A DNA stretch of 64,000 nt from Escherichia coli (GTDB taxonomy: Bacteria > Pseudomonadota > Gammaproteobacteria > Enterobacterales > Enterobacteriaceae), in NCBI RefSeq assembly GCF_011045215.1, contig NZ_CP049201.1; one strand, written 5' to 3'. Within the stretch, counting starts at the first letter, position 1. Each line of letters begins with the position of its first letter. The translations under genes and the position numbers were made by a program. This document shows positions 6,337-24,449 of this stretch, in pieces. A model generated the notes under the pieces. That model saw nothing but the letters and a program-made list of their open reading frames with translations. It ran no database searches and had not been told where the DNA came from.

Positions 6337-8340
6337 TCATCCTTGTTGCTGAAGCATGGGGAATAATTGTTCGCACAGCAAAACACCGTTATTCATTGCT
6401 TCTACCCGTGCCTCGCTTTCTGTATTACGAAATTGTCCCAACACATGTGCCAGCCGATAAAAACCCACCGCGGTGAGGTCATTCGCCAGCAACTCTGCCT
6501 GACCAATAGCACTCTGTTCCTGATAGCGCCAGCCGTTATGGAGCAGTTGAATAAGTAATGCCTGGCAGCGCATCAGCAACTGATGAGCAGTAGACGGCAC
6601 AGGCAGAACGCTGGCAGAAGGTAGTGATGCCACCACAGGCGCAGTTTCTGCGTCCAGCGCCCAGGCACGAGTCTTTGTCATCATTACCTGTGGTTCCAGT
6701 GTCAATTGCCCATCAACAAAACTGACAAAGCCAGAAACCAGACACACGGGGTCGTCTGTTTGTTGCAAAAGCGCCGCCATGCGTTCAACGGCATAAGGCG
6801 CGCTGGCTGAGGCTGGCAGTGATAACGTCAGCAGATTATCTTCACCTTCGCCGCTGATTACCTGCGCATCCAGCGTTTGGCGGCTGCTATCCCAACCGAG
6901 TGAAATACACTCAGCGACCGGCAGAATAAATAAGTTATCGACCTGATTAAGAGGCCGTATGCAGGCGGGGGGACGCTGGCGTAAATATTCCCGCAAAGCC
7001 ACAATGCCCGGCTGGCGCAACGGCGCGCTCAACATTTGCCAGGCATCTGGCGACAGTGGAACAACACTACTCAAGCGGTTACGGGTCGCGAACAGCAGTT
7101 CGCCTTCGGCACTGCGACGCGCTGCTTGTGAAACAATTTGTCCACCTGCCAGTGCGCCAGCCTGAAAACTAAACAGCCGACGTTTTGCCGCGGGAGCGTT
7201 TTCTTGTTCGCTTCTCGGCCAACTACGCGAAAGATGCAAAATACTGCCGGTGTCGGGATCGGTAAACCAGATGCGTAAACCATAATGCTTAATATCCTGC
7301 CAGCAACGCATACCTAAAGACACCAGCCGCAGATGATCAAGCTTTGCTTCTCCGGCAATGCCAGAGCCAACGCCCGTGCGCCACGGCACAGGAGGAACTT
7401 CACCAACACTGTCGCGCCGGGCCATCTCTTGTGCGCAATTTAATCGACTGTTTAATGCCGCAAGCTGACGTAAGCATTCTCCGGCATGATAGTGGCTGGC
7501 GCGAGTGTGGAAGGCATCAACGCTTGCCCGTAGCTGTCGTAGTGATTCACTCACCCATCGCCAGTTGCAGCGTTCCGCCGCCTGCTGTGCGCGGCTGAAA
7601 GCGGCCTCGTAATGGATTGGCGGCTGGCTGATGCCGCCCAGCCATAATGCCTGACTTAATTGCTGAACATATTGACGACATGTTTTGCCTTCTTCGCTGG
7701 CAAACGGATCGTCAGATGATGTGACGTGTTCGCTGCGCATCTGCCAGATTAAATGAGTAAATTCCGCTTGCTGAGTTTTGGCCTCGACGAAGGCCTGCAC
7801 AGCCAGTACGACATGTTCGCAAAGTGTGCCTTCAATACAATCACAGCGGGCGAAGCGAATGCTGCTGCGGGAATAAAAACGCACATCACTCATCGGTAAG
7901 CGGGCTGAGGGAATTTTGCCAGGCGCACAGAACAACTCAATGGTGATGCCTTTAGCGACCAGCGCCTGTGCGCGTTTGCGGGTGGCATCGGGAAGGGTAG
8001 CCAGTTCTTCCAGCCAGATTGCCGGATCCCATTCCTCTTCTTTTCCCGTAGGCTGGGCGGTAGCACAAAGTCGTTGATAACTTAACACCAGCATCACGCG
8101 ATGACGGCACATGCCGCTGGCCCCGCAGCTGCACTGAGCCTCTTTCAGTGCCTGGCCGTTCGCCAGCTGGGTACGGACACCGTCACTGAAGGTGGCGATT
8201 AAAGCGCCGTTCTCATGGCTGATCTCCGGGACGTTGCCATTTTCCAGTTCCTTAAGACTGCGCTTAACAAAACCGGCATTGCTTAACGCTGTCAGGGCCT
8301 GCGGTGTCAGTTCTAATAATTCCGGACGTAGTGAATTCAT
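6337..8340 (-). CDS. yehQ: twin SWIM zinc-finger protein, last gene of the yehLMPQ cluster
   Basis: Two CxC...CxH SWIM-like motifs (CSCGASGMCRHRV and CDCIEGTLCEHVV); start placed at the ATG overlapping the yehP stop (ATGA at 8337-8340), giving 667 aa; ORF track extends to 8364. Confidence 0.75.
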   Translation of the reverse strand: MNSLRPELLELTPQALTALSNAGFVKRSLKELENGNVPEISHENGALIATFSDGVRTQLANGQALKEAQCSCGASGMCRHRVMLVLSYQRLCATAQPTGKEEEWDPAIWLEELATLPDATRKRAQALVAKGITIELFCAPGKIPSARLPMSDVRFYSRSSIRFARCDCIEGTLCEHVVLAVQAFVEAKTQQAEFTHLIWQMRSEHVTSSDDPFASEEGKTCRQYVQQLSQALWLGGISQPPIHYEAAFSRAQQAAERCNWRWVSESLRQLRASVDAFHTRASHYHAGECLRQLAALNSRLNCAQEMARRDSVGEVPPVPWRTGVGSGIAGEAKLDHLRLVSLGMRCWQDIKHYGLRIWFTDPDTGSILHLSRSWPRSEQENAPAAKRRLFSFQAGALAGGQIVSQAARRSAEGELLFATRNRLSSVVPLSPDAWQMLSAPLRQPGIVALREYLRQRPPACIRPLNQVDNLFILPVAECISLGWDSSRQTLDAQVISGEGEDNLLTLSLPASASAPYAVERMAALLQQTDDPVCLVSGFVSFVDGQLTLEPQVMMTKTRAWALDAETAPVVASLPSASVLPVPSTAHQLLMRCQALLIQLLHNGWRYQEQSAIGQAELLANDLTAVGFYRLAHVLGQFRNTESEARVEAMNNGVLLCEQLFPMLQQQG

Positions 8341-9473
8341 GACTGAAGATTCTCCGCAAGCCATGATGCCAGCTCGCCCGGTGTCATGGCGGCTATTTGT
8401 GCGCCGACATTTACCAGCGCCTGGGCCGTATCGTGGTCATAGCAAGGCGTTGCTGTGCTATCGAGCGCTGCCAGTCCCAGCACTTTGATGCCGCTCTGGA
8501 CACACTTTTTCACCTGATGCGTCAGTAATGATGATGAACCCCCTTCGTAAAAATCGCTCACGAGGATAATGACGCTTTTCGCTGGTTGTTCAATAAGTTG
8601 CCGACCATATTCCACGGCACTGGCGATATTGGTTCCGCCGCCTAATTGCACTTTCATTAATAACTCTACCGGATCGGCAACGTCTGCCGTGAGATCAACC
8701 ACGCTGGTGTCAAACGCCACCAGATGGGTACGAATGCCGGGTAACTGCCATAAACAGGCCGCCATCACCGCAGAGTGGATCACCGAATCGACCATCGAGC
8801 CGCTTTGATCAACCAGTAAGACCAGTTGCCATTGTTCGCTTTGGCGTTTAATGCGGCTGTTAAAGCGGGGGGATTCGATATACAACTTGCCGTGTTGCGG
8901 GTGCCAGTGTTGCAGGTTGGCGCGCAGAGTACTTTTGAAATCAAAGTTTCGCGCCAGTGGAATAAATGAGCGGCGACGGCGATCGCGGACACCAGAAAAA
9001 GCCTGACGAACTTCCTTTGCCAGTCGAGCCATAATTTCTTCAACAACCTGGCGCACTATCCGGCGGGCGGCAGCCAGTACTTCGGGATTCATCAGATGTT
9101 TGGTGTGCAAAACGGCGCGTAGCAGGCTTTCAGAAGGCTGCATACGTTCCAGCACGTCGAGATTCGTCACCACATCTTCAATGCCATAGCGCAGTACGGC
9201 ATCGCTTTCCAGCCGCTCAATCACCTGTTGCGGAAACAGCGTGTGAATACTGTTGATCCACTCAGGGGTGGTGAGATTTGAGCCACCTAATCCACCGGAG
9301 CGTTCACCACGCTGGAGCCGTTCAGGATCGCGCCCATACAGCCACTCCAGCGCGTGGTCTACCTGCCGGGCATTGTCATCCAGCCCACAAAGGGTCGTTT
9401 CTGCCGCTTCGCCAAGAATTAATCGCCAGCGTTGTAGCTCACGGGTAGTCAGAAGATCGTTCAGTTCAGACAT
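8337..9473 (-). CDS. yehP: von Willebrand factor A (VWA) domain protein
   Basis: 378 aa from MSELNDLLTTRELQ; MIDAS motif DQSGSM in LVLLVDQSGSMVDS; start overlaps the yehM 3' end by 8 nt. Confidence 0.85.
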   Translation of the reverse strand: MSELNDLLTTRELQRWRLILGEAAETTLCGLDDNARQVDHALEWLYGRDPERLQRGERSGGLGGSNLTTPEWINSIHTLFPQQVIERLESDAVLRYGIEDVVTNLDVLERMQPSESLLRAVLHTKHLMNPEVLAAARRIVRQVVEEIMARLAKEVRQAFSGVRDRRRRSFIPLARNFDFKSTLRANLQHWHPQHGKLYIESPRFNSRIKRQSEQWQLVLLVDQSGSMVDSVIHSAVMAACLWQLPGIRTHLVAFDTSVVDLTADVADPVELLMKVQLGGGTNIASAVEYGRQLIEQPAKSVIILVSDFYEGGSSSLLTHQVKKCVQSGIKVLGLAALDSTATPCYDHDTAQALVNVGAQIAAMTPGELASWLAENLQS

Positions 9474-11745
9474 GGAAAACTCCCCAGTGTTGCAGCGATG
9501 CCAGTGCCTGCTGTTCGAGTTGTTGATGATGTGCAATGGCTTGCGGAGGATAATGCAACGGCATTTGCAGCGCTGAAACAGGAAGCTGCGCAAGCTGGTA
9601 ATGCTCAAGCACCTGATGCGCCAGTGTCCCGCGTTCTCGTGGCGGTAGCCAGGCCATCGCCGCGCGCAAATCGGGCAAGGCGTTAATAAAATCGTCGTCA
9701 CTCAGTTGATTTAAATGACTACTGAAACCGGCGATAAATGCTGGTTGGCAGGCCAATTGATGACGGGCGAGCGCCAGCAAACCGTGCAGCGCCTCGCCGG
9801 ATTGTGCCGGGGATAACTGCGCCAGCATCGTCAGCGCCGCTTCGGCACTGGCGTTGGGATGTTCCAGACGCATCAGTGCGCCAAGAGCCGCGCCGCGATC
9901 CAGCGCCGGGACATGAATCGCCTGACTGCGGCGCTCCAGTAAGGCTACCGCCGCAGAAAGAAAAACGCCGGGTAAATTAACGCCGCTATGTAGATCGCGC
10001 AGGATATGGCAAAGCGCCTGCCAGCTATGCATGTGAGCGTGAAACTCCTTTTCATCTGGTCTGCCGTTAGATTCACACAGCCACAGCGTGCGATCGATAG
10101 CCGCGCATAACGTCGTTTGTAATATCTGCGCGCCTTGCATACCGCTAATTTCATCCAGCCGCCATAAGGCATATAGCACTTCCAGCGCCTGGCCCATTTC
10201 GGCAAATTGATTTTCCTGGGCGATTAATAATGTGAGTTGCTCCAGTAATTGCTCACTAAAGCTCGCCAGGCCCGCTAACGCCGCCTGGCTTAGACATGCG
10301 GTAATGCTGCCGATTCCACCCGCGTCCAGCATATCGGCTTCTAATTTATTGCGTGCGGCTTCCTGGAGCGTGGCACCAAAGCAGGCGGCCTCAATTAATG
10401 CCGCATGCTGGCTAAGCGGCTGGGTTAATTTCCACTGTTCTTCACCGTTACCCGCAAGCGTCAGTGTACTTCCGTGCTGGCGCACAATGCCGGGAATCTC
10501 CAGTATTGCCAGCCGATGTAACACCTGACTTTGCGCTAGTCCATTGGGGTTAAAGCGATTTAAGGTAAGCTCCACCGGAAGAGAGATTGCGGTACGTTCC
10601 AGTTCGCAGGTGACATCTTTTGGCAGAGGCGGTTGTGGCGTAGAAGGGGCAAGTTTACCGAATCCGTCACCCGCTAATGTGTCTATCAACGTTAGCAGAA
10701 TCGGATCGGTGTCGGGATGAATAACTCCGCGATAGCTCCACGGCAACGGCGCGTTCAGGGCTTCTTTAATCAGCGAGCCTGCTATGGCATCCAGCCAGTC
10801 AGTGCGTAACGGTAGTTTATGTCCGCGCAACTGTGCCAGCGCCATCGCATGCAGATGAGCGGCAGCCATATCCGCGGTCGAAGCAGGCAAGTGGTGTTGG
10901 CGCAAACGGGTAAGAACCGTTTTTAGCAGTTGTTCTCCCGCCTGCTGTAAGCCCCACTGCCAGCACCAGCTTTGCCAGACCGGGGCAGGCATTCCTGAAA
11001 GGTATCCTGCCAGCACATCAAGGCGCTTTTCACTGTAGGGTGTGAGATAACAACCTGTAACGGCATCTGCCAGCGAGGGCAATTCTGGCTTGTTAATGTC
11101 CTGCGGGCATTCGCGCCACATTTTTGCCAGTGCCGGAGCGTGCCAGCCACCGCAGACGACTAACACGTCGCCATTATTTTGCTGCACCGCCCATGCAATC
11201 CAGCGAGCCATAAAGGCTTCGCGCTGACGATTGAGTGCATCGCCGGGGAAATCGCCCCGCAGTTGGGCAAAATAGTGCGCCAGTGCAGAGGGTAATGCAG
11301 TTTGCTGGCTTTCATCTTCGAACAAGTGATCCCACAGGGTATCGCTGTTATCCATGCGGGAGGCACGCAGCAGCAAGGTCTGGCTTTCCTCTTGCGTTTC
11401 AGGCGAATCGTCCTCTTCTTCACTCTGTGCCCAGCAAGGCAAATCGATGAAGTAAGTTTGTGCCTGAATACGACGAGCGGCTTGTAGCGCCTGCCACTCC
11501 GGCGAAAATTCAGCAAATGGCGTCCAGGCACCACGCCCGGGGGCTGCACCGTCCTGATACTGGCAATAACTGTAAATAGCTACCGGAAGCTGGTGGGCTA
11601 AAAACAGTTCGTCTACCCGGTCATTAAAATCAGCCGGGCCTTCAATCAACACGTATCGTGGCCGCTGGCTTTCGATTAACGATTTCACCAGCCGGGCGCA
11701 GGCCGGACTATGATGCCGGATGCCGACAATTAACGGCTCGCTCAT
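9466..11745 (-). CDS. yehM: large uncharacterised protein of the yehLMPQ cluster
   Basis: 759 aa from MSEPLIVGIRHHSP; no domain recognised by eye; tightly packed between yehL and yehP. Confidence 0.8.
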   Translation of the reverse strand: MSEPLIVGIRHHSPACARLVKSLIESQRPRYVLIEGPADFNDRVDELFLAHQLPVAIYSYCQYQDGAAPGRGAWTPFAEFSPEWQALQAARRIQAQTYFIDLPCWAQSEEEDDSPETQEESQTLLLRASRMDNSDTLWDHLFEDESQQTALPSALAHYFAQLRGDFPGDALNRQREAFMARWIAWAVQQNNGDVLVVCGGWHAPALAKMWRECPQDINKPELPSLADAVTGCYLTPYSEKRLDVLAGYLSGMPAPVWQSWCWQWGLQQAGEQLLKTVLTRLRQHHLPASTADMAAAHLHAMALAQLRGHKLPLRTDWLDAIAGSLIKEALNAPLPWSYRGVIHPDTDPILLTLIDTLAGDGFGKLAPSTPQPPLPKDVTCELERTAISLPVELTLNRFNPNGLAQSQVLHRLAILEIPGIVRQHGSTLTLAGNGEEQWKLTQPLSQHAALIEAACFGATLQEAARNKLEADMLDAGGIGSITACLSQAALAGLASFSEQLLEQLTLLIAQENQFAEMGQALEVLYALWRLDEISGMQGAQILQTTLCAAIDRTLWLCESNGRPDEKEFHAHMHSWQALCHILRDLHSGVNLPGVFLSAAVALLERRSQAIHVPALDRGAALGALMRLEHPNASAEAALTMLAQLSPAQSGEALHGLLALARHQLACQPAFIAGFSSHLNQLSDDDFINALPDLRAAMAWLPPRERGTLAHQVLEHYQLAQLPVSALQMPLHYPPQAIAHHQQLEQQALASLQHWGVFHV

Positions 11746-11755
11746 GCATCTTTCC

Positions 11756-12844
11756 TCACGGCAGGCGGTGGCGGGCTTGATAATAAGCCTGCCAGTGAGC
11801 TTCTTTATGTGTGGCGACACGCTGTTCGAAGTAACGGCGCAGACGAGCGCGATCTTCTTCGTTATCTTTGACGATGGTTCCGGCAATACAGTCCACCAGG
11901 TCGGCAGGCTCCCCCGCGCGATTCGCTAAAAACCAGGCGCGGACGCCCACGGCGTGGGCCACGTTCACGGCTTCAGCGGTGGACATAATCGCTGTTAGTG
12001 TATCCATTGACGTTTTCTTTTCGCCGTTGGCACGCAGATCGCGGAAGGTGCGGACCAGTAACTCCAGTACCGCGTCAGGCACTTTATGCGGAATACCGCT
12101 ATGGGCCAGCAAACGCGCCGAAGCACTGGCGACAAGCTCCAGCTCTTGGGCGAAATCCATAATCGGAAAGACAGTTTCAAAATCGAAGCGACGCTTTAGC
12201 GCAGCACTCATTTCATTGACGCCGCGATCGCGGGTATTGGCAGTGGCAATAATATTAAAGCCTTCTCGCGCATAGAGCTGACTGGCTTCACCAGTGAGTT
12301 CCGGCACCGTCATCACCCTGTCAGAAAGCATACCTAACAGACAGTCTTGCACTTCCAGCGGTGTACGCGTTATCTCTTCAAAACGGACGATTTTGCCGTC
12401 GCGCATTCCCTGGTAAAGCGGGGCAGGGACCAGCGCTTCCGTTGATGGACCATGATTGATAAGCAGGGCGTAGTTCCAGCCGTACTTGATTTGATCTTCG
12501 GTAGTAGATGCGCCGCCCTGGATGGTTAACCCGGCATCGCCGCTAATAGAGGTTGCCAGTAATTCAGACAGGAGAGATTTTGCGGTGCCAGGTTCCCCCA
12601 CCAACATCAAACCGCGTCCGGTGGCAAGAGTGACTAACATACGTTCGACAGCGGAGGGACTAATCACCACTTTACGGCTAATATTTTGCGCGCTATCGCC
12701 AAGGATAAAAGCACGGGCCGCAGGCAAACTTAACTGCCAACCGGGCGGGCAAGGTGCGTTATCATTTTGTTTTAATTTTGCCAGTTCATCGGCGTATAAC
12801 ACAGCAGCAGGCGGACGCTGCAGATGATTATTCTGCGGTGACAT
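11756..12844 (-). CDS. yehL: MoxR-like AAA+ ATPase
   Basis: 362 aa from MSPQNNHLQRPP; Walker A GEPGTAKS, compact AAA+ core typical of MoxR/RavA-like ATPases. Confidence 0.85.
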   Translation of the reverse strand: MSPQNNHLQRPPAAVLYADELAKLKQNDNAPCPPGWQLSLPAARAFILGDSAQNISRKVVISPSAVERMLVTLATGRGLMLVGEPGTAKSLLSELLATSISGDAGLTIQGGASTTEDQIKYGWNYALLINHGPSTEALVPAPLYQGMRDGKIVRFEEITRTPLEVQDCLLGMLSDRVMTVPELTGEASQLYAREGFNIIATANTRDRGVNEMSAALKRRFDFETVFPIMDFAQELELVASASARLLAHSGIPHKVPDAVLELLVRTFRDLRANGEKKTSMDTLTAIMSTAEAVNVAHAVGVRAWFLANRAGEPADLVDCIAGTIVKDNEEDRARLRRYFEQRVATHKEAHWQAYYQARHRLP

Positions 12845-13276: not shown

Positions 13277-13366
13277 ATGGACTCGCTGACACAAAAGTTA
13301 ACCGTGCTCATTGCTGTACTGGAGCTATTAGTAGCTCTGTTACGTTTGATTGATTTGTTGAAGTAA
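13277..13366 (+). CDS. candidate small hydrophobic protein (29 aa), unannotated as far as I can tell
   Basis: ATG preceded 6 nt upstream by AAGGAG; encodes MDSLTQKLTVLIAVLELLVALLRLIDLLK; followed by a GC hairpin; candidate promoter TTGCAA-N16-TATAAT at 13068-13095. Confidence 0.35.
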   Translation: MDSLTQKLTVLIAVLELLVALLRLIDLLK

Positions 13367-13475: not shown

Positions 13476-13793
13476 TTATTCTATTTCTTGGTTGAATATA
13501 TTCTGTAGTTCACGATTAAAAATTGCTATTACAGTTTCAGGTGATTCACCTCGTAATTTCCGCTCATCAATACACTCATCTCTTATATAAATCAACGCAT
13601 CATTTATTAGCGGGTCAGCATCTTCTCGATCACGTTGATGAAATGTTGGATGTAGCCGGAATCGCTCCAGTCGATAGACGGAACCTGTAAATAATTCAGA
13701 GCATTTATGGATCTCAAGTCTGAAGGAAAACGGATCTTCAGGTACAGGGACCTCATAATCGTAAATAGCAACCAGCTCTTTTTGCACGATCAT
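13476..13793 (-). CDS. yehK: uncharacterised 105 aa protein
   Basis: 105 aa ORF (MIVQKELVAIYDYEVPVPEDPF...) in the K-12 yehK position immediately downstream of yehI. Confidence 0.75.
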   Translation of the reverse strand: MIVQKELVAIYDYEVPVPEDPFSFRLEIHKCSELFTGSVYRLERFRLHPTFHQRDREDADPLINDALIYIRDECIDERKLRGESPETVIAIFNRELQNIFNQEIE

Positions 13794-13853
13794 CGCTTTC
13801 CCCGCTGGTAAGTCGTGTTGATAACGGGCAGTTGCATCACTGCCCGCTGTGTT

Positions 13854-16800
13854 TTAATGGAAAATGACGTCAGCTGCGCTTAACGCCTCACTCAAATCAA
13901 ACACATCGAGTTCGGCAAAAGTGACGGATTTATTGTTACGGTAAACCCGAAGAGAATGGAAGCTCATCAGCGCTTTGCTATCAGCACTGTAGTGGTTAAA
14001 ACCGGGTGAAAACTTAAGGACCAGCCGGTACTCACCCAGGTCATAGACAAATGCGTCCTCATAGCCTGACTCCCAGCCTTTGTATCGCATTCCCATAAGT
14101 TGCCCAACGGTAGCGGATTTACCTTCCCAGCGAGTCAGGCTGTTACTGGTTGACTCGTCAGGTGTGAGCAGCACCGTGCGGCGCGACAACTGGCGAAAAG
14201 GCGGCATAATTTCGTAATCGGCAAAAAGCTGTGCAAATTCACTGCGCATTTCTACTGTCATTTCTAACGGGTGGGCAATGCCAATCAGAGCGTCCGCAGG
14301 CAGGTCAATTGGCTCATCTTGCGCATTGCAGAACTCCCCCTCTGCGGCCACACGAAAGGCGTTGAGTAAACAACGCGGTTCATTTGCCGGATAAACCCCC
14401 CATATTAATCGCTGGGTAACCAGACGGGTAAAGGGATGATTAACAAACAGAGAATGAAAATCTGCCAGCGACCAGCGTCGGGTGGTACGTAGGGCCGTTT
14501 CAAGACGCGGGAGCAGGTTTTTGCTCACCTGAGTGGCATCTTTTTTTAGCCCTTTTAGTTGGGCCAGTGCCTCGGGCGCTTTCAGTTGATCGTCATCGGC
14601 GCGCAACCGGGGAACGCTTTTCTGGCGAACGTTTTGCTGATCAAAGATAATCGGGTTGAGGTTTTCATCGAAGCGAACGGTAAACTGCCGGGGACCAAAA
14701 TCAAAAATCAACGCCTGCGGATCATCAAGGCCAAGGGTTGGGACTAATCTGTCCGCTAGCTCTTCCTGGCTTAGCCCGCGATTTTCTGCGACCACCTGAA
14801 GAAATTCCGCCGCGTTATCACGTAAGGGGCGGGATTTAGCCCGTTGCGATATATGATGCAGCTGTATCAGCGCCATATCATTATTCATCAGGGTAAGGAT
14901 GTTCAGGCCGCTGACAGCACGGGCAGATTTGCCTTCTTGTGGCCAGGCGAGGATCTGTGTCGTCAGATCCCGTGCCGTGCTTTCGTCACCAAAGAGACTT
15001 AACGCCAGAAATGCCCAGTTGTCTTTTGCGGGGGCACCAGCTTGTTGCCACGCAGTGAAGAGATCCCAGGCAAAAGCTGCCAGCGTTTGTGGCTGGCAGA
15101 ACGTTTTCAGTTGTTCCAGCCCGCTATAAAAACGTCCCCCCTGGGTAAAGCGCAGCATTTCGCCGAAAATTTCCAGAGCGTCATCGGTAACAGTTTGATT
15201 ATTAGTGATAAGGCGCGGCCTGGACCACATTTGCGGATGCCAGAAATCAGGGGCTTTTGGAATGCGTGCCGGGTAAATCTCTATTGGACTCTGTTTAAGT
15301 AATTGTTCCAGGGCAGGCCATAGATCTGTACGCTGCCAACGATTGGCTAAAGTTTGTAGCAATTCGCCATGCCCATGTTCGTAAAGTAAACGCAGGGCAA
15401 GTAATGCAGCTTCGCTTTTATCGCTGGATTTGGTGAAGACAAGAGGGATAAGTGCAGTAGCCGTATGTTCCGGCCAATGTAAAATCCACTGGCGAGCCAG
15501 ATTACGCTGGCCCGCAAAACGGTGCCAGACGCGGGCAATGGGCAGGGCCAGTTCTGTTGCGCCGAAATTTAAAATTAACGGAAATGTTTCTTTTGGACGA
15601 TGTGAAAAAGCCAACAGCAGACCTGGTAGCGCATCCAATCCGAGGATACTGAGAAAATAGTCCTCACCCGCGAACAGATGCTTTTTCTCATTGATACGCA
15701 GCCAGAAGGTCAAAGCTATCTCACGCGGCAACTGTGCCAATAAATACAGGTTCCAGACACTCTTTTCCGGACGATAACGTGAGTAGTTGTCATTTTCCCA
15801 TATGTTAATTAACGCTTCTACGTGACCACTGCGAAGCGCCTGTTCTGCTAATGGTGCTTCCGGGGAGTTCCAGCCATTCAGGATCTCTTCAACCCGCCCC
15901 TGGTAGTAATGCCACTCAACAATGAGTGAATTGCGTGCAGCATCCAGTTTTCCGGGGAGTATATAATTCAAAAACAGCCATACATCATCCCCAAAACCCA
16001 GTTCCTGTAATACAACTCGCCCACTTTTTTGTTCCATGCGTTCCGCAAGAGATTCCGTGCTGAAATAACGGGCAGGCTCAGTGGCGGCAAGCCTCTCTCG
16101 TTCGCCTGGTTGCCAGTAAACTTGCGGAGTTAATTCGAGCCGTGCCAAATCAAGACGTGGAGCTGTCATTTTTTTCTTACTACGCCACGGTGGTGAAACG
16201 AGGATTTCAGGCAGATTGCTGTTATCGGTGCCATCAATAACCGGTTTTGGCAGTGCCGATAAATAACTCTTCAGCACTGCCCTGGCTTGAGTACTTAACC
16301 ACGGCATCACTTCTGCTGCCAGTTGTGGCTGCGATGCCATCAGCGTTTGTAACAGCGTACGCCAGTATTCATCGCGTGCTTTTTGCTGTGCAGGCAGCTT
16401 TTTGTCTTCGATGATTGGATAACCAGGGCGGGCTGGTGGTTCTGTTAACGCCAGCAGTTCTGCCAGTGCGGCGAGCGTCGCATGGGGGAAGTTTTTATGG
16501 TATTTAGCTACACGTTGCAGGCTGGGTTTGTTTTTATCAGCCACCAGTAGCAAGGTGCGGATGACTTGCGGATGGTTAATTTGTACCAGCAGACTGCCGC
16601 AATCTTCTTTATAGGCATACATCGCGAGGCGCGGAATGGCTGCCAGTCCTTGTTCGCGCAAAAGGGCGGCGCAGGCCGCGTAGCCGAAGTGGTTTTCATG
16701 CGACATGTAGCTGGCTTCTCGATCGCTAAATATATCCTGGCTCCAGTAGTGTTCGAGTTTTCTCACCGCTGTGGGGTCATTAGCTACAACTTTTAACCAC

Positions 16801-17486
16801 TCCTTAGAATGAAAATGAGTTCGCGGGCATTCAAGGCCTACCAACTCATTGGCTATTTCTGGTTTTTCCGGGAGGATCAGCGCAATAAAAGGGCGGCGAA
16901 CTTTGGTTATTCCTGGTAGTGCGGCAATGAGTTTGTCGGCGCAACGCTGCCAGCAGCTTTCCTCTGCCAGAGAGAGGTGTTTACGCAGTCGGAGATCGAA
17001 TTCGTTATAGGTTTCTGAGCGATAACCATAGCCATAGTCCTCGTTCTGATACTGCAATGTGACTACCAGAGGATCACTCTCATAACACCGTGCAATAAAC
17101 TGGCGTGCAATCACCACCTCAGTCGCATATTCCAGCCCCTCTTGTTGGACGATTTCGTCGAGCAACTGTTGGCTGTCATTTTGCGCGATACAGGCTAGCG
17201 CCGCCATTGTCCGGGCCGGGATTGAGGGTTTGTGTTCGCCGATCAAGTTGATGGCCTGCGTGATGGCGGACTGCCACTCCAGTGAAAAATTTTCATAACG
17301 CCAGACAATGTTTTTTTTCTTCTCAGCTTTTTGTAGCAATTCATCACCCAGTGTCTGAATGATGCTTTCAGTGATAACAGGCACTGGTTCGCCCGGCCAA
17401 TTGCGATGGCTGAGTGGTGTTTTACCCTTTTTATATTTCAGTTCCAGTTGGGCGTTATCAGCCAGCCACGGTAATTCCTTGTCCAT
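13854..17486 (-). CDS. yehI: giant DUF4132-type protein, paralog of the two upstream genes but lacking the N-terminal WGR-like domain
   Basis: 1210 aa; begins at the PWLAD motif that follows the WGR domain in the paralogs; C-terminal region aligns with both upstream paralogs. Confidence 0.85.
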   Translation of the reverse strand: MDKELPWLADNAQLELKYKKGKTPLSHRNWPGEPVPVITESIIQTLGDELLQKAEKKKNIVWRYENFSLEWQSAITQAINLIGEHKPSIPARTMAALACIAQNDSQQLLDEIVQQEGLEYATEVVIARQFIARCYESDPLVVTLQYQNEDYGYGYRSETYNEFDLRLRKHLSLAEESCWQRCADKLIAALPGITKVRRPFIALILPEKPEIANELVGLECPRTHFHSKEWLKVVANDPTAVRKLEHYWSQDIFSDREASYMSHENHFGYAACAALLREQGLAAIPRLAMYAYKEDCGSLLVQINHPQVIRTLLLVADKNKPSLQRVAKYHKNFPHATLAALAELLALTEPPARPGYPIIEDKKLPAQQKARDEYWRTLLQTLMASQPQLAAEVMPWLSTQARAVLKSYLSALPKPVIDGTDNSNLPEILVSPPWRSKKKMTAPRLDLARLELTPQVYWQPGERERLAATEPARYFSTESLAERMEQKSGRVVLQELGFGDDVWLFLNYILPGKLDAARNSLIVEWHYYQGRVEEILNGWNSPEAPLAEQALRSGHVEALINIWENDNYSRYRPEKSVWNLYLLAQLPREIALTFWLRINEKKHLFAGEDYFLSILGLDALPGLLLAFSHRPKETFPLILNFGATELALPIARVWHRFAGQRNLARQWILHWPEHTATALIPLVFTKSSDKSEAALLALRLLYEHGHGELLQTLANRWQRTDLWPALEQLLKQSPIEIYPARIPKAPDFWHPQMWSRPRLITNNQTVTDDALEIFGEMLRFTQGGRFYSGLEQLKTFCQPQTLAAFAWDLFTAWQQAGAPAKDNWAFLALSLFGDESTARDLTTQILAWPQEGKSARAVSGLNILTLMNNDMALIQLHHISQRAKSRPLRDNAAEFLQVVAENRGLSQEELADRLVPTLGLDDPQALIFDFGPRQFTVRFDENLNPIIFDQQNVRQKSVPRLRADDDQLKAPEALAQLKGLKKDATQVSKNLLPRLETALRTTRRWSLADFHSLFVNHPFTRLVTQRLIWGVYPANEPRCLLNAFRVAAEGEFCNAQDEPIDLPADALIGIAHPLEMTVEMRSEFAQLFADYEIMPPFRQLSRRTVLLTPDESTSNSLTRWEGKSATVGQLMGMRYKGWESGYEDAFVYDLGEYRLVLKFSPGFNHYSADSKALMSFHSLRVYRNNKSVTFAELDVFDLSEALSAADVIFH

Positions 17487-17495
17487 GCTCTTTCC

Positions 17496-20400
17496 TTATT
17501 CAAACAGGGCTTCAATATCGTTAATTAGCTCGCTGGCGGTGATGGCATCGAGTACGGAGAACAGCGCTTCCTGTGTTGAATTACTCCCCCAGCCATAGCT
17601 TTCCGCTTTGCCTTCCCATAGCCACAGCTTGCTTAAGAGCTGCTCAGCGCTAAGTTCGGCTGGTGACATACCCACTGCAAAGCCTTCATCGATTTCCATG
17701 ATTAACGACCAGCGGCCCAGAGGTTTGATCATCCAGCCGATCCAGCCTCCATCCTGTGGTTCGCCCTTTATCCAGCCTTTATTCGCCAGCCCCATTACCC
17801 GACCGCTCGGGCATTTTCTGCCTGCCCAGCGGGTCAGTTCGCTGGCGTTGCGCTCGGCTTCTGTCAGGGCGTAACTGTTACGGTCAAGCTGGCGGAACGG
17901 TGGTAACAGTTCGTAGTCGGCAAAAAGCTGACCAAAGGCGGCAGCATCCGTCGGTGATATTTCCAGAACGTGAGGAATACCAATAGAGATATCGCCTTCC
18001 GGCAGGGTGAAAAGATCATCGTCAGCGGTGCTGTAGCTGTTATCTTCCGCTACGCGAAAGCAAGCCTGCAGCTGGTTTTCGGCGCTATAAACGCCCCAAA
18101 TCAGACGGCGGGTTAAGTGGCGAACCAGCGGATGCTCAACCAGGAAGAGCTGAAAGTTTTCCGGTGACCAGCGGCGACGCAGGCACATGGCGGATTCCAG
18201 CCTTGCTACCTGCTGGGCGGCGACGGTACGCGCATCTTTTTTCAGCAGTTTGTAGCGGTTAACAGCATCGTTCGCCTGTGATTCATCATCGCTTTTGTTT
18301 GGTTTGGGCAGGTCTTTCAGACGGCTGCCAGAAACATCACGCACAAACGGTTTTAAGGTTTCATCAAAGCTGACGGTGAACTGGCGTGAGCCGAAATCCA
18401 GCAGCAACGAACCGTTATCATCCAGACCGAGATCCGGTGCTAACCGATCTTCAAGCTCTGCCACCGTGAGTTCGCGGCTTTCGGCAATGTCGGCAATTTT
18501 TTCTTTTGCCCGCTCCTGTAATGCTTTGAATTTCAGTTTCTGGGCAATACCGTTAAGCTGCATCAGGGCGATATCACTACCGATAGCGGCGAGAATATCC
18601 AACCCAACGGTGGCGCGTTTATGCTGGGATTCACCAGGCCAGGCGCGTATTAATGGCGTCAGTTTGCGGGCGGTGTCATCGTTACCAAGAACGCCTAACG
18701 CAGTGAACGCCCAACTCTCTTTCGACGGTGCGCCCGCAGTCAGCCAGGCGGTAAACAGATCCCAGGCAAATTCAGCCAGTGAGTCGGCGGTACAGGCATC
18801 TTTCACCTGCAATAATCCCGGATACAGGGCCTCTTCCTGAGGGAAGCGGAGCATTTCACCGAGGTGCTGGAGTGCGCTATCTGGCAGTACCTTGCTGCTA
18901 TTTTTGAGTTTCGGGCGAGTCCATAATGGAGGTTGATAAAACAACGGTAAAGGGGGGATTTTCGCCGGGTATTTACCCACAGGACTGTTGTCGTTATTTT
19001 TATTTTGAGTTTCCCAGGGCGGCGAGACTAGTACCATTGGTAGAATTTCTGAGTTTGCAAAATCTTCATTGCGACTATTCAGCAATTGCTGACATTGTTG
19101 CAATAAATTTACCGCTTGCGACGATAATCCGATGACTAATTTTTCGACCAATAAAGGATTTGCATTAAGTAATGAAACCAGCAACGTATGTTTGCGTTTA
19201 TCATCTTTTTTTACCAATGCTTCGGCTAATGCCGCTATCGTGGCAGAAGGAAAATTTTCGGCACTTTTTATTAGTCGTTCATAACAGCGTTTATTAGTAT
19301 CGGCGGCTTCGATGAGTGCCGTAATGGCCAACGGATGATTAATACATTTCAGTACGTCACCGCAATTATCTTCTTCAGCATAGGGAGCCAGGCGAGCCAG
19401 TGCCGCTATACCTTGCTCCCGTAATACCGTAGCTGACCAACTGGCACCATAGGTGTTAAATACATCAATGTATTGATAGTTCTCCAGTATTTCGAGCGTG
19501 AATGGATCTGTCGCTACCAGTTTCAACATTTCAAGTTGTGGAACATCTGCGACCTGGTGTAAACGATGTACGATCTCATGGGCCACTTCGGGTATTTCTG
19601 GCATTAAAATGGCAATTAACGGTTGGCGATAGAGTGATATATCTGGTAACGCAACGAGTAATTTTGCAATGCAATTTTGCCATACTTCTTCTTCTGCTAG
19701 TGATAAATGTTTACGCAGACGTAAACTAAATTTGTCGTTATTCCTTCTATAACTGTCCTTGCTGCTATCTGCATAATTAATAAAGAAAGTCAAATGTTCA
19801 TCTTTATAGTCAAAATCGAAATCAATTTGCCACCAGAAGATGACAGTTTCAGTTGCGTATTCGATACCGAAGGTGCTTACAATTTCATCCAGCAACTCGG
19901 ATGAGGTTTCATCATTCCAGCCCTGACAAAAACATATTTCCAGAAAAGTAAGTACCGCCATAGTACGCGCGGGTATCTTAGTCTTTTGGGCCTTAATTAA
20001 GCTGATTGCCTGGCTAATCGCATCAGCCCATTCATCAGAGCATGAGCTGTAATCGAAAGTCAGATTTTTATAATAATGATAAGTACGATTTGCCAATCGG
20101 GAAATTAAATTTTGTTTCTCGGGTTTGGTTGGTTTTTTTACTGGCTCTCCCGGCCAAAGGCGGTGGCTGAGGGCATGGCGGGCAATATTCGGGGGAAGAA
20201 TAATGGGATCGTTGTCTGCCAGCCAGGGTAAACCATTAGTTGCTGCCTGGCGATTTATTGAGGCTTTTTCCTCTGTGACCAGGACTTTCTTTGCTGAGGC
20301 ATCATGTGAGTGAGCGTTAGCGTCTACTTGCTCCACATACCCCTTCTTCACCTTCTCCGCAATCAGCTTCAGTGCTGCTTTTTCCGCCGCCGCAGTATCT

Positions 20401-20528
20401 GCAAAGCTTTTTACCTGACTTTGCCCGTTGGTACCGACTTTACCCCAGTTAATATGCAGCTCGTTTCCCTGCTGCTCCACCGCCCAGAATTTATGTGATT
20501 TTTCGTCCTGATAAATATAGGTTTTCAT
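17496..20528 (-). CDS. giant WGR-domain/DUF4132-type protein, middle paralog of the tandem array
   Basis: 1010 aa; N-terminal about 65 aa near-identical to the 1269 aa paralog (MKTYIYQDEKSHKFWAVEQQGNELHINWGKVG...); conserved C-terminus ...ITASELINDIEALFE; 9 bp from the yehI start. Confidence 0.8.
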   Translation of the reverse strand: MKTYIYQDEKSHKFWAVEQQGNELHINWGKVGTNGQSQVKSFADTAAAEKAALKLIAEKVKKGYVEQVDANAHSHDASAKKVLVTEEKASINRQAATNGLPWLADNDPIILPPNIARHALSHRLWPGEPVKKPTKPEKQNLISRLANRTYHYYKNLTFDYSSCSDEWADAISQAISLIKAQKTKIPARTMAVLTFLEICFCQGWNDETSSELLDEIVSTFGIEYATETVIFWWQIDFDFDYKDEHLTFFINYADSSKDSYRRNNDKFSLRLRKHLSLAEEEVWQNCIAKLLVALPDISLYRQPLIAILMPEIPEVAHEIVHRLHQVADVPQLEMLKLVATDPFTLEILENYQYIDVFNTYGASWSATVLREQGIAALARLAPYAEEDNCGDVLKCINHPLAITALIEAADTNKRCYERLIKSAENFPSATIAALAEALVKKDDKRKHTLLVSLLNANPLLVEKLVIGLSSQAVNLLQQCQQLLNSRNEDFANSEILPMVLVSPPWETQNKNNDNSPVGKYPAKIPPLPLFYQPPLWTRPKLKNSSKVLPDSALQHLGEMLRFPQEEALYPGLLQVKDACTADSLAEFAWDLFTAWLTAGAPSKESWAFTALGVLGNDDTARKLTPLIRAWPGESQHKRATVGLDILAAIGSDIALMQLNGIAQKLKFKALQERAKEKIADIAESRELTVAELEDRLAPDLGLDDNGSLLLDFGSRQFTVSFDETLKPFVRDVSGSRLKDLPKPNKSDDESQANDAVNRYKLLKKDARTVAAQQVARLESAMCLRRRWSPENFQLFLVEHPLVRHLTRRLIWGVYSAENQLQACFRVAEDNSYSTADDDLFTLPEGDISIGIPHVLEISPTDAAAFGQLFADYELLPPFRQLDRNSYALTEAERNASELTRWAGRKCPSGRVMGLANKGWIKGEPQDGGWIGWMIKPLGRWSLIMEIDEGFAVGMSPAELSAEQLLSKLWLWEGKAESYGWGSNSTQEALFSVLDAITASELINDIEALFE

Positions 20529-20540
20529 TGTTAAATCCTT

Positions 20541-23500
20541 TTAATCAAACAGTGATTCAATGTCGTTAATCAGCTCGCTGGCGGTGATGTCGTCGAGCAT
20601 GGAGAAAGTGGGTGAGGATTGTTTACCATAGCGATCATAAGGGGCGGTGATTTTTACGCTTTCGACAGGCAGCAGGTCGCTATACCCCGTTTCGCCATAA
20701 ATTAATGAAAAAGGTTCCGTTTCAAGTTCGAGAGCACCATAAGGGGTAGATTTGCGCATCGCATAGACGCTGCCGCTTTCTTCCAGACGTTGCCAGCCTC
20801 GGCGTTCCAGCCCGACAATGCGTCCGGCCTGGCAGAGACGTCCGTTCCAGCGTGACAATTCATGGACATTACGTTCGTTATCAGCAAGGTGGTAACTACC
20901 ACGTTCGAACTGTTGGAAAGGGGGAAGCAGTTCGTAATCAACGTAAATTTGCCTGAATGCAGCGGCGGATTCAGGGGGGATTTCCAGCACATGCGGTATA
21001 CCGATGTTTCCTGCTGGCAGCGTGAATAACTCATCCTGCGCATCGCTGTAAGTGCTGTCTTCTGCCACGCGAAAACAGGTGATAAGAGCGTTTTCATCGT
21101 TATAACCCCCCCATAACAGCCGTCGGGTTAAGTGACGTACCAGCGGATGCTCCACCAGAAACAGGCGGAACTGCTCTGCCGTCCAGCGTCTGCGCTGGCA
21201 CATAGCCTGTTCCAGACGGGTAATTTGCTGGCTGGCGATAGCACGAACATCTTTTTTCAACTGTTTGAAGAGATTAACTGCGTCAGTTGCCAGTGTTTTA
21301 TCATCGCTCTGGTTTGGCTTAGGTAAATCTTTCAGGACTTTGCCGTTTGCATCGCACACTACAGGTTTTAAGGTTTCGTCAAAACCAACGGTGAATTTGC
21401 GGGGGCCGAAATCCAGTGTCAGCGAGCCACTGCTATCAAGCCCTAAATCTGGAGCCAGGCGGTCTTCCAGTTCAGCCATAGTCAGCCCACGGTTTTCAGC
21501 AACTATGTTGATTTTCTCGCGGGCATGTTCCTGTAATGCTTTGAATTTAATTTTTCGCGCGATGCCATTAAGCAGCATTAGCGCAACATCGCTGCCAATA
21601 TCAGCTAATACATCCAGCCCGGACACCGCCCGTTTATGCTGGGATTCCCCAGGCCAGGCGCGGATAAGCGGGGTTAATTTACGCGCGGTGTCGTCATTGC
21701 CTAAAATCCCAAGCGAAGTAAATGCCCAGTTTTCTTTTGCGGGTGCGCCAGCTTCTGTCCAGGCGGTATACAGATCCCAGCCAAATTCAGCCAGTGATTC
21801 GCGGGTGAAGATTTCTCTAATGATATCCAGCCCAGCGTAGGCGGTAATGTCGCGAGGAAAGCTCAGCATAGTGCCGAGGTGGCGCATAGCGTCATCTGAC
21901 AGAGGCAGGTTGTTACTTTTAAGCCGTGGTCTGCGCCACAAGGTGAACTGATAAAAGCCGGACAGTGGGGCGATTTTAGCGGGATATTCTTCCAGTGGGT
22001 CGCTATCGAACAATGTTGCCAGCGCAGCTAAAACATCAGGTTGGTTGTATCCCTGGGCGATTTCCTCAATCGTTTCTCGCTGGTTTAAATTCACCAGCAG
22101 ACGAAGCGCCTGGCGGGCACAATCACGATCTTTTCCCTGTTTGCCCAGGGCCACAGGAAGTAGCCCGGCGGCGGCATGGCGTGGGTAGTCAGTTAGCCAG
22201 TTTCGCGCATCTTCATAAGACATTTTTTTCTGTAGCTGTTGCGCCATCGGTAAGGCCAGTTCACTGACACCGAGGAAGAAGGTGAAGAAGCACAGGCGTC
22301 GTGGATTACGTTGCAGACAGGTCATAAATGCAGGTATGGCGGCGCTACCAAAAATTGCCAGAATATTTTCCTCACCAGAGTAGTTATCTTCTTTGACTAT
22401 CTGGTTAAGAAAAGAAATGGCCTGTTGACCAGGCAGGTAACAGAGGGCCATGAGATCCCAGCTTTTGTATGCATTGTTATGGTATTGCGCAAATTCAGCA
22501 TTGAGTGCTGGAAAATCGAAGCGTAGCAGGGCATCAACGGCGCTTTGTGGGGCCGGAATTTTTTCGTATATTTTCTCTCCGCTTTCCCGCCATTTTTCAA
22601 AACCAAGATGCCACAGTATTTGTTGCTCCGGTGTAAGCGGTATTAATTGTTTCTCCCAGCTTGCTTTTTTCATCGGCGGCAGGTCGGTAAACAATGTTTG
22701 TTTTGTCGCCTGCTGTTGGGCTATTTGCTGGAAGCGGGTGACAAGGTAAGTACGGGTTAGTCTTTTGGCAATCTCGGGAGTGACATCAGAAACAGAAGGA
22801 ACTGGAAGCACAGGAAGATCAAACACAGGCGTATTTTTCTTTTTCTCTTTGGTCATCCAGGGCGGCGAAACAAGCAGTTGTGGCAACATATCCGCAGTGG
22901 CGTATTCACACACTTCAGTCACAGGTTGCAGGCGACATTCAGATAAGATGCCAGCGGCTTTGGCATTCACCCAGGGAATGACGTCGCATACTAACTCTGG
23001 CGTGGCGGTAATCAGTTTGACAAGCGCTTTACGCCACTCTTTATCTTCATGTATTGCCAGCAAAGTAGCATAAGCCGCAATAGCCGCAGCGGGATGCTTT
23101 TGACTGGCCTTGCTTAAGTATTCCAGGTGCTTTTTCTTACCAATTACACCGAGGATCAGAATTTGAATCGCATCCGGGTGATTAGTTTTCCATAGCCATT
23201 TGACAAGATTTTCAGTCTCGCTGATGCGTTCGAAGAGATAAGTGGGATTGTCAGAATGGTCTTCCGTAAACTCAAGAAGTATCCGGCTTACACCGCGCAC
23301 CCCATTATTTGCCAACAACATTGCCAGATAAGCGCGAAAATTACGAAAATCACGATACAACGGTGGGAAGTCGTATTTTTCCACTGTACTCAGAGCAGTA
23401 TCATCGGTTATCACCAGTCTTAACCAGGCCATCGCCGGGACGTTTTGGTCTGCATAGCGTAGAGCTATAGCATGGGCGATATCCGGGCGTTCAGGGAGCA

Positions 23501-24350: not shown

Positions 24351-24449
24351 TCTGCATCCCTGTAATTTTATCCAGTTAAATGCAGATGCTACCAGTATTT
24401 ATGCGGGTTAGAGAGAGACAAAATCGCAAGAAAACAACTTTAGGAATTT

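Follow-up and report, generated by a model that had tools for sequence, protein, structure and literature searches.

YehI of Escherichia coli is an intact and selectively maintained DUF4132 family protein that lacks the N-terminal WGR module of its tandem paralogs

In the 64-kb Escherichia coli window, that is, the whole stretch of DNA analysed here, yehI occupies the yehL-proximal position in a tandem WGR–solenoid–DUF4132 array, is full-length, and is selectively maintained. Its product is an intact, conserved member of the family minus only a small N-terminal module, which comprises a WGR domain of ~70 aa and a linker of ~25–30 aa, and the PW(L)AD motif begins five codons after the yehI start.

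Results

Organization of the yehI locus

The minus-strand gene order in the window is metG, two genes encoding WGR + DUF4132 proteins (1269 and 1010 aa, here the first and the middle paralog), yehI, yehK, and yehLMPQ, and the same-strand neighbours of yehI include genes assigned by Pfam to AAA_5 (MoxR), DUF5682, VWA_CoxE, and SWIM. The features are listed below by their positions in the window.

24360..24375, minus strand: SOS-box-like sequence CTGGATAAAATTACAG, 9 nt upstream of the first paralog ATG
20541..24350, minus strand: first paralog (molR-type), 1269 aa, WGR + DUF4132
24144..24335, minus strand: WGR domain of the first paralog, residues 6–69 (Pfam, local WGR HMM)
24054..24068, minus strand: PWLAD of the first paralog, residues 95–99 (alignment)
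17496..20528, minus strand: middle paralog, 1010 aa, WGR + DUF4132; its TAA stop (17496–17498) is in frame with yehI
20322..20510, minus strand: WGR domain of the middle paralog, residues 7–69 (Pfam, local WGR HMM)
20214..20228, minus strand: PWLAD of the middle paralog, residues 101–105, preceded by WGR and a ~30-residue linker
17487..17495, minus strand: 9-nt spacer GGAAAGAGC from the upstream paralog stop to the yehI ATG, forming an AGGA ribosome-binding site with the stop codon
13854..17486, minus strand: yehI CDS, 1210 aa, DUF4132 (PF13569) at residues 954–1138, without WGR
17457..17471, minus strand: PWLAD of YehI, codons 6–10, the opening conserved motif of the family body, at which homology with the paralogs begins
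13476..13793, minus strand: yehK, 105 aa, no family match
11756..12844, minus strand: yehL, MoxR-type AAA+ ATPase (AAA_5), YehL subfamily
9466..11745, minus strand: yehM, DUF5682
8337..9473, minus strand: yehP, VWA (CoxE-like)
6337..8364, minus strand: yehQ, SWIM zinc-finger protein; the coordinates are ORF limits and the true start is uncertain

The small gene yehK, located between yehI and yehL, is confined to Escherichia. The middle paralog is devoid of a ~245–290-aa middle segment that YehI and the first paralog possess, and which is also present in a 1253-aa allele of the middle paralog in strain CMZE027. Across the family, arrays range from one to at least eight copies, fragments counted, and show mosaic alleles, cassette-type variable regions, and frequent recombination and pseudogenisation.

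YehI starts at the domain boundary that follows WGR in its paralogs

Pfam assigned YehI to DUF4132 alone (E = 3.5e-47, 161 bits vs. a gathering cut-off of 27), and WGR (PF05406) was not found in it at E ≤ 0.01; the 1010-aa and 1269-aa proteins matched both DUF4132 and WGR, the latter at E = 6e-19 and 6.5e-19, respectively. Further, a local WGR HMM seeded on Pfam-confirmed WGR domains was run on the six-frame ORFs of the window, and produced matches in the two upstream ORFs only, with neither the ORF of yehI nor its extension upstream giving one; hence yehI has no cryptic or frameshifted WGR nearby. Pairwise alignments of YehI with the two paralogs spanned the full length at 43% and 33% identity, indicating homology rather than a chance match. 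In the MAFFT alignment, the YehI N-terminus M-DKE-L-PWLAD was placed against ...NGL-PWLAD (residue 101) and ...QR-PWLAD (residue 95) of the paralogs, PWLAD being invariant across the three proteins. Pfam, the local HMM, and the full-length alignments thus agree with the original prediction that YehI belongs to the paralog family but is without WGR, and the MAFFT alignment places its beginning at the PWLAD boundary after the paralogs' WGR, as had been proposed.

The start of yehI was also predicted to lie 9 bp past the preceding stop, and indeed the upstream 1010-aa ORF terminates with TAA at 17498–17496 and the yehI ATG is at 17486, stop and start sharing the frame. The AGGA Shine-Dalgarno sequence straddles this stop and the spacer, and the junction is kept in 5321 of 5426 complete E. 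coli genomes. Such a tight junction is compatible with co-expression of the middle paralog and yehI.

YehI models as a HEAT-like solenoid

The AF2 model of YehI (pLDDT 89.8, pTM 0.78) displayed a HEAT-like alpha-solenoid to about residue 915, followed by an alpha/beta C-terminal region, and residues 1–45 were non-regular yet confidently placed. Foldseek searches of the full model against the PDB retrieved weak, generic solenoid matches only (E ≥ 2.4e-3, TM ≤ 0.17), and YehI structure and profile searches together returned generic HEAT/ARM matches and no enzyme fold; the model is that of a non-enzymatic HEAT-like solenoid. By sequence, no relative of the family body with a solved structure was found in the PDB, where the body matched an artificial HEAT-like alphaRep protein only, and the middle paralog WGR was weakly matched to the PARP3 WGR and strongly to the Bacteroides WGR protein 2ra8.

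Against PADLOC-DB 2.0, seven of the eight cluster proteins, YehI included, gave no match, and the middle paralog gave a single sub-threshold one (WGR_XIII, E = 0.0047, 13 bits), none being significant. In NCBIfam, a Leptospira "fibronectin-binding" model matched the WGR region, and apart from weak AAA/VWA matches nothing else was obtained. RefSeq already distinguishes a "DUF4132 domain-containing protein YehI" from a "WGR and DUF4132 domain-containing protein", and a functional study was not found in the literature on yehI, DUF4132, DUF5682, and YehL.

yehI is conserved and under purifying selection

Orthologous yehI genes were inspected for an N-terminal WGR module, and it was absent throughout Escherichia, the Klebsiella oxytoca group, and Serratia fonticola: the WGR-less orthologs of E. 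coli, E. marmotae, E. fergusonii, E. albertii, K. oxytoca, K. grimontii, K. huaxiensis, and S. fonticola are 1194–1216 aa in length, carry PF13569 alone, and have the N-terminus M-x(3–7)-PWLAD. The dN/dS values of yehI were 0.29 vs. K-12, 0.19 vs. E. albertii, and 0.10 vs. K. oxytoca, so the gene is under purifying selection (dN/dS 0.1–0.3).

These data bear on whether annotation or assembly errors account for the short N-terminus, or yehI is a pseudogene remnant in decay. Beyond the unusual absence of WGR nothing speaks for this, while the in-frame TAA 9 nt upstream of the ATG, the lack of a WGR-like ORF in any frame near yehI, the identical start in thousands of genomes and several genera, the purifying selection, and the confident AF2 model, residues 1–45 included, all speak against it. 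A pseudogene or a misannotated start was accordingly rejected and is effectively refuted.

Nine columns are invariant in the 122-sequence family alignment (W434, W813, W848, L864, P916, G931, R933, R1003, and R1102) and 20 in the 59-sequence alignment; YehI keeps all of them, as it must, since it belongs to both alignments, and their retention argues against a degenerate decoy. One could still regard YehI as a decoy or negative regulator, which would compete for YehLMPQ or for the ligand of the paralogs without nucleic-acid sensing and so damp the system. In keeping with this, YehI is without WGR but retains the conserved C-terminal module and all family-invariant residues, yehI sits beside yehL, and the C-terminal module of YehI is more diverged from those of the WGR paralogs (40–47% identity) than these are from each other (63–80%). 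However, a pure damper should decay once the WGR genes break, and yehI remains intact with a dN/dS of 0.29 vs. K-12, where the WGR paralog is reduced to a yehF fragment and a yehH pseudogene; yehI is likewise intact in E. albertii, whose WGR paralog is broken into split ORFs. As WGR-less copies are also found alone (see below), we regard a decoy role as improbable.

YehI probably arose by a single loss of WGR, and similar losses recur in the family

The Intestinirhabdus alba locus has the order metG-[WGR + YehI-like, 1279 aa]-yehLMPQ, with this gene as the only family member between metG and yehL. Its product (P0114) is 54% identical to YehI over the full length and carries WGR and linker directly before TPPWLADDAQ. 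In the neighbour-joining (NJ) tree, the WGR-less YehI genes formed a monophyletic clade with the Intestinirhabdus gene as its sister, and WGR was reconstructed at the root. Because the sister gene retains WGR, YehI arose through loss of the module, and the domain loss put forward in the original prediction is upheld by this WGR-bearing sister and root state. The tree places one loss in the ancestor of the Escherichia/Klebsiella oxytoca-group/S. fonticola YehI clade, after its split from the WGR-bearing Intestinirhabdus lineage.

An upstream extension of yehI encoding WGR in related genomes would have spoken against this loss. The WGR-bearing cases found were the Intestinirhabdus ortholog and, in E. 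coli, the rare chimeras P0020, P0050, and P0118, recombinants in which a WGR-paralog N-terminus is joined to a YehI C-terminus, and they support the loss: such WGR-bearing YehI-like genes show the ancestral state and ongoing recombination, not an extension missed in the window.

Among the 115 full-length family representatives at 50% identity, the local WGR HMM found WGR absent in 41. Fitch parsimony on the approximate tree gave at least nine (about nine) WGR gains or losses; since this is a distance-based NJ tree of mosaic, recombining genes, the number of independent losses is approximate. Independent WGR-less copies in Duganella, Massilia, and Mycolicibacterium start 5–45 residues before the PW motif, and the WGR-less representative P0141 begins with MPPWLADGD. 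Further, L070_11875 holds an MRRFEL remnant of an internally deleted WGR, and WGR remnants likewise occur in representatives P0140, whose N-terminal sequence is that of L070_11875, and P0166. The WGR loss in YehI is therefore correct but fairly ordinary, equivalent losses having been repeated across the family.

Gene order links the family to yehLMPQ

A full-length family gene directly flanks the cluster in 43 of the 49 loci with yehL and yehM, which were found in Enterobacterales, Burkholderiales, Xanthomonadales, Mycolicibacterium, Trichlorobacter, and Holophagales, and in 32 of the 49 one WGR-bearing gene adjoins yehLMPQ. All five mixed arrays with linkage to yehLM have the WGR-less copy placed between the WGR copy and yehL. 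The order [WGR][WGR-less]-yehL is seen in independent mixed arrays from Duganella (L016) and a MAG (L067). Massilia arrays, in which WGR-less copies are distal to yehL, show that this position is not a rule. In Mycolicibacterium (L045) a WGR-less gene stands alone beside yehLMPQ, with no WGR within 10 kb upstream, and orphan WGR-less relatives occur at L005, L010, L038, and L069. An S. fonticola yehI is an orphan, flanked by an Rpn-type transposase gene and lacking yehLMPQ within 10 kb. Since yehLMPQ is missing from the 10 kb around some WGR-less relatives, the family may also function apart from that machine.

Could YehI then be independent of both the WGR paralogs and YehLMPQ, its adjacency being a by-product of tandem duplication? 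The S. fonticola orphan and the solitary L010, L038, and L069 relatives point in this direction, but the flanking of the cluster in 43 of the 49 loci and the conserved position of yehI beside yehL or yehK across Escherichia and Klebsiella make it very improbable.

Alternatively, YehI may form obligate heteromers with the upstream WGR paralogs and depend on their WGR in trans. In Escherichia and the K. oxytoca group, yehI is always beside at least one WGR paralog or its remains, with a 9–14-nt spacing that suggests coupled synthesis, and L016 and L067 repeat the same order. However, yehI is intact in K-12 and E. albertii without an intact WGR paralog, L045 has only the WGR-less gene beside yehLMPQ, orphan WGR-less copies occur, and a YehI-type body with its own WGR is the sole copy in Intestinirhabdus. 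Strict dependence of YehI on the WGR paralogs is weakened by the K-12, E. albertii, orphan, and L045 cases, and we consider an obligate partnership unlikely, if less so than a decoy. It is by gene order only that YehI is, putatively, connected to YehLMPQ and to the WGR paralogs.

Phage-encoded head-less decoys were also considered and dropped, as tblastn with the C-terminal 480 aa of YehI gave no match among 50,697 phage records. Plasmid matches were few; the E. coli ones include chromosome-sized records, and some others are on very large replicons.

A candidate SOS box precedes the array

The SOS-box-like sequence ahead of the first paralog has seven of the eight specified bases of CTGT-N8-ACAG (one mismatch) and is the sole candidate regulatory site ahead of the array; within the array, the minus strand showed neither a promoter-like nor a strong terminator-like site. 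The exact LexA consensus CTGT-N8-ACAG gave no match, and one-mismatch sites number 25 in the window vs. 18 expected, the motif match alone being not significant. molR is among the genes listed with a known SOS box in the LexA regulon (PMC6590174).

Discussion

The explanation that we favour combines an architecture, an evolutionary course, and a functional mechanism, and as a whole we hold it to be somewhat more probable than its rivals taken together. Its architectural and evolutionary part is highly probable, and its mechanism is tentative. In this mechanism, the family proteins would be non-enzymatic HEAT-like scaffolds that serve as adaptors or clients of a YehL (MoxR AAA+)-YehP (VWA)-YehM-YehQ machine, and WGR would be their nucleic-acid or DNA-end sensing head, by analogy with the PARP WGR. 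YehI would be a head-less isoform, translated by coupling from the SOS-regulated transcript that also encodes the WGR-bearing copies; as a sub-functionalised variant equipped with a variable cassette of its own, it would act beside these copies, being neither a dead decoy nor an obligate appendage. More speculatively, and with little confidence on our part, the yeh array and yehLMPQ might form a DNA-damage-inducible sensing or conflict system, in which diversifying HEAT-solenoid proteins would be interchangeable sensor/adaptor subunits of a MoxR-VWA-SWIM machine and head-less copies would reflect a recurrent, selected uncoupling of target recognition from WGR sensing, e.g., in mixed assemblies.

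A WGR-less YehI in itself matters little, as yehI already bears a name in E. coli and roughly one in three close family members is without WGR. What is added here is the polarity, i.e., loss from a WGR-bearing single-copy ancestor; the recognition of PW(L)AD as a family-wide domain boundary where WGR is repeatedly removed; and a widespread five-gene module that centres on a MoxR-VWA pair, has hypervariable paralog arrays, and may be under SOS control in E. coli. Should the system come to be characterised, naturally paired copies that have and lack WGR, together with the WGR-keeping Intestinirhabdus ortholog, would be ready tools for probing the role of the WGR head.

Compared with known proteins, YehI is closest to MolR/YehF-YehH, with which it has in common the array, the strand, DUF4132, and a homologous body from PWLAD to the C-terminus (33–43% identity), while it differs by the absence of the ~95-residue WGR + linker and by a more diverged C-terminal module. 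The historical label "molybdate metabolism regulator" for MolR found no support in this analysis. The HEAT/ARM scaffolds, such as karyopherins, condensin HEAT subunits, FANCI/FANCD2, CAND1, and PP2A-A, are of the type of YehI's best Foldseek matches, which are weak and generic and reflect a likeness in fold class only, not homology. PARP1/2/3 employ WGR in DNA-break sensing, and both upstream paralogs carry the Pfam WGR (PF05406, E~6e-19), so that nucleic-acid binding by this bacterial WGR may be proposed by analogy; in contrast to these PARPs, YehI has no WGR and a PARP catalytic domain is nowhere in the locus. Finally, yehL (AAA_5) and yehP (VWA_CoxE) downstream of yehI resemble the MoxR AAA+/VWA pairs RavA-ViaA, CbbQ-CbbO, and NorQ-NorD, YehL being the name of one of the seven MoxR subfamilies (PMC3893208), and the conserved gene order, as the sole ground, suggests that DUF4132 proteins may be clients or adaptors of YehL-YehP.

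The yehI start coincides with a family-wide module boundary

The window is E. coli DNA. Its 10.5-kb region is 99.9% identical to that of strain PapM-32-1, and was matched at least partly in 5421 of 5426 complete E. coli genomes. The minus-strand gene order is metG, a 1269-aa gene, a 1010-aa gene, yehI, yehK, yehL, yehM, yehP and yehQ.

20541-24350, minus strand: first paralog, 1269 aa, WGR and DUF4132 (Pfam)
17496-20528, minus strand: middle paralog, 1010 aa, WGR and DUF4132 (Pfam)
13854-17486, minus strand: yehI, 1210 aa, DUF4132 only (Pfam)
minus strand: yehL, AAA_5 MoxR ATPase
minus strand: yehM, DUF5682
minus strand: yehP, VWA_CoxE
minus strand: yehQ, SWIM

Pfam detected WGR (PF05406, E~6e-19) plus DUF4132 in both upstream paralogs, while YehI matched DUF4132 alone (E=3.5e-47), confirming the original prediction that it is a WGR-less member of the paralog family. 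In both paralogs the WGR domain (residues ~6-69) is followed by a ~25-30-residue linker and then by PWLAD, which starts at position 101 in the middle paralog (1010 aa) and at position 95 in the first (1269 aa). The YehI N-terminus reads MDKEL-PWLAD, and PWLAD is invariant in the three-way alignment, so that the proposed start at this segment is borne out. The 9-nt distance to the preceding gene was also found: the middle paralog ends with TAA (17498-17496), followed by the spacer GGAAAGAGC and the yehI ATG, which shares one frame with this stop, and an AGGA straddles stop and spacer. At the other end, 8 nt past the yehI stop, a GC-rich hairpin (CGGGCAGTTGCATCACTGCCCG, 13825-13846) lies between yehI and yehK; it scanned as terminator-like on the plus strand only, the yehI strand having no T-run.

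The family is very large, with 5674 representatives at the 50% identity level (E<=1e-3), and among the best 115 full-length ones an N-terminal WGR was present in 74 and absent in 41. Fitch parsimony on an NJ tree required at least nine WGR state changes. Independent WGR-less copies start 5-45 residues ahead of the same PW motif, and WGR remnants persist in some, such as the MRRFEL of an internally deleted WGR in L070_11875 (a Massilia array gene) and those in the representatives P0140, with the same N-terminal sequence, and P0166. These recurrent starts indicate that, throughout the family, PW(L)AD marks the edge of a detachable module made of WGR and linker, which explains why yehI begins precisely there.

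YehI derives from a WGR-bearing gene

Intestinirhabdus alba carries a single family gene between metG and yehL, encoding P0114 (1279 aa), which is 54% identical to YehI over the full length and has a WGR and a proline-rich linker immediately ahead of TPPWLADDAQ. Among the 106 full-length copies placed in the NJ tree, the WGR-less YehI genes form a monophyletic clade with the Intestinirhabdus gene as its sister, and WGR is the state at the root. The ancestor of YehI thus bore a WGR, and the N-terminal module was lost afterwards.

The claim that yehI has no WGR-encoding extension held for the window, in whose six-frame ORFs a WGR HMM, seeded with Pfam-confirmed domains, matched the two upstream ORFs and no others. 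Elsewhere, YehI-like proteins with a WGR are P0114, which shows the ancestral state, and three rare ones from E. coli (P0020, P0050 and P0118). In these three, recombination has joined the N-terminus of a WGR paralog to a YehI C-terminus; such chimeras are evidence of paralog recombination, not of a hidden yehI extension. We hold this reading of YehI architecture and evolution with high confidence.

YehI orthologs are conserved and lack WGR

YehI-like proteins of 1194-1216 aa were found in E. coli, E. marmotae, E. fergusonii and E. albertii, and outside Escherichia in Klebsiella oxytoca, K. grimontii, K. huaxiensis and Serratia fonticola. When checked for an N-terminal WGR, all these orthologs had PF13569 only, starting 3-8 residues ahead of PWLAD or a close variant. 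A 191-nt probe of the stop-spacer-start junction matched 5321 of 5426 E. coli genomes at 90-100% identity, and the 9-nt junction was identical with one or two WGR paralogs upstream.

The dN/dS (NG86) of yehI was 0.29 vs. K-12, 0.19 vs. E. albertii and 0.10 vs. K. oxytoca, so yehI is under purifying selection. All residues invariant across 59-122 family members are kept in YehI. This selection and complete retention argue against a degenerate decoy.

In the AlphaFold2 model of YehI 1-1200 (mean pLDDT 89.8, pTM 0.78), an alpha-solenoid extends to about residue 915 and gives way to an alpha/beta C-terminal region. The first 45 residues, with PWLAD and HRNWPGEP among them, lack regular secondary structure but have pLDDT 77-91 (10-residue block means), and in the model they resemble an ordered strap lying on the body more than a disordered tail. 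Foldseek returned only weak, generic HEAT/ARM matches, the family profile matched an artificial HEAT-like repeat protein in the PDB, and neither comparison found an enzymatic fold.

Arrangement of WGR and WGR-less copies at yehL loci

Loci were surveyed in one genome per species (73 loci, annotated by local HMMs), and 49 carried yehL and yehM. In 32 of these, one WGR-bearing gene flanks yehLMPQ (Erwinia, Serratia, Variovorax, Acidovorax, Burkholderia, Xanthomonadales, Trichlorobacter, Holophagales); four had at least two WGR copies, five were mixed arrays (Escherichia, two Klebsiella, Duganella and a MAG), one had a WGR-less gene only (L045, Mycolicibacterium), and seven had contig-truncated, fragmented or frameshifted copies. 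The WGR-less copy sits between the WGR copy and yehL in all five mixed arrays. Massilia arrays (L017, L027, L029, L042, L044, L060, L062, L070) hold up to eight family ORFs, fragments counted, in ~25 kb, with both types present and the WGR-less copies yehL-distal. Several solitary family copies also occur elsewhere in Massilia genomes.

Within the array, a consensus scan of the minus strand found no promoter-like sites and only weak terminator-like matches, which together with the 9-12-nt gaps suggests one transcript with translational coupling. A SOS-box-like sequence lies ahead of it.

24360-24375, minus strand: SOS-box-like CTGGATAAAATTACAG, one mismatch to the LexA consensus

It is 9 nt ahead of the first paralog's ATG, and the match is not significant by itself, but a review lists molR as a gene known to carry an SOS box (PMC6590174).

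Some functional coupling is favoured by the constant position of yehI, by its tight junction and by the independent recurrence of the [WGR][WGR-less]-yehL order. A strict dependence of YehI on WGR paralogs in trans would fit poorly with K-12, where yehI is intact downstream of a yehF fragment and the yehH pseudogene, with E. albertii, where it is intact beside a WGR gene in split ORFs, with L045, and with orphan WGR-less copies (L010, L038, L069 and S. fonticola L005, beside an Rpn-type transposase gene). The orphan yehI ortholog of L005 (8661-13594) encodes 1197 aa at 62% identity. It is directly downstream of the Rpn-family (Transposase_31) gene, and neither yehLMPQ nor a WGR paralog was found within 10 kb, suggesting that the WGR-less gene moved alone by horizontal transfer.

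On our best reading, YehI may be a sub-functionalised isoform without the WGR head that serves the YehLMPQ MoxR-VWA machine as adaptor or client and is expressed together with the WGR-bearing copies; we offer this mechanism tentatively, with low confidence.

The array is polymorphic within E. coli

At least 80% of the three-gene array (13854-24350) was covered in only 936 of 5426 complete genomes, and in most E. coli genomes yehI is accompanied by a single WGR paralog. In strain 405 a deletion runs from inside yehI into yehM, and the array region of ST131 sublineage L1a carries a blaCTX-M-15 transposon insertion (PMC9334617).

The middle paralog lacks a ~245-aa internal segment found in the CMZE027 allele (1253 aa; L009:5143-8904). 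Identity between the two alleles is 95% in the C-terminal 495 aa but only 49% in the N-terminal ~510 aa, a split indicating that middle-paralog alleles are mosaic and hypervariable within E. coli. YehI residues 441-560 (window ~15807-16166, minus strand) exist as two Escherichia cassette types that are 24-27% identical, with flanks mostly ~90% identical or more and residues 561-700 at ~60%. This cassette falls inside residues ~441-730, the region deleted in the 1010-aa paralog.

The yehK-yehL intergenic region holds a zor-orz type I toxin-antitoxin module, at the location published for EHEC z3289/z3290 (PMC2887945).

12956-13031, minus strand, and 13277-13366, plus strand: zor-orz module, with OrzO-P antitoxin sRNA (Rfam RF02083, 99.9 bits) and a 29-aa ZorO-like toxin ORF MDSLTQKLTVLIAVLELLVALLRLIDLLK

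Comparison with known systems

RefSeq names already separate YehI (DUF4132 only) from "WGR and DUF4132" proteins; the WGR absence is therefore correct, but visible in existing annotation and common in the family. A literature search on YehI, DUF4132 and DUF5682 found no described function, PADLOC gave no significant defence-system model match for eight cluster proteins, and tblastn of the YehI C-terminal 480 aa found no homolog in 50,697 phage records. YehL names one of seven MoxR subfamilies, and is uncharacterised (PMC3893208). The DNA-damage-induced radiation/desiccation regulon of Deinococcus includes WGR and DUF4132 genes (PMC8533742). Taken as a whole, the E. coli locus could represent a sensing or conflict system, so far undescribed, that responds to damage and has hypervariable mosaic paralogs.
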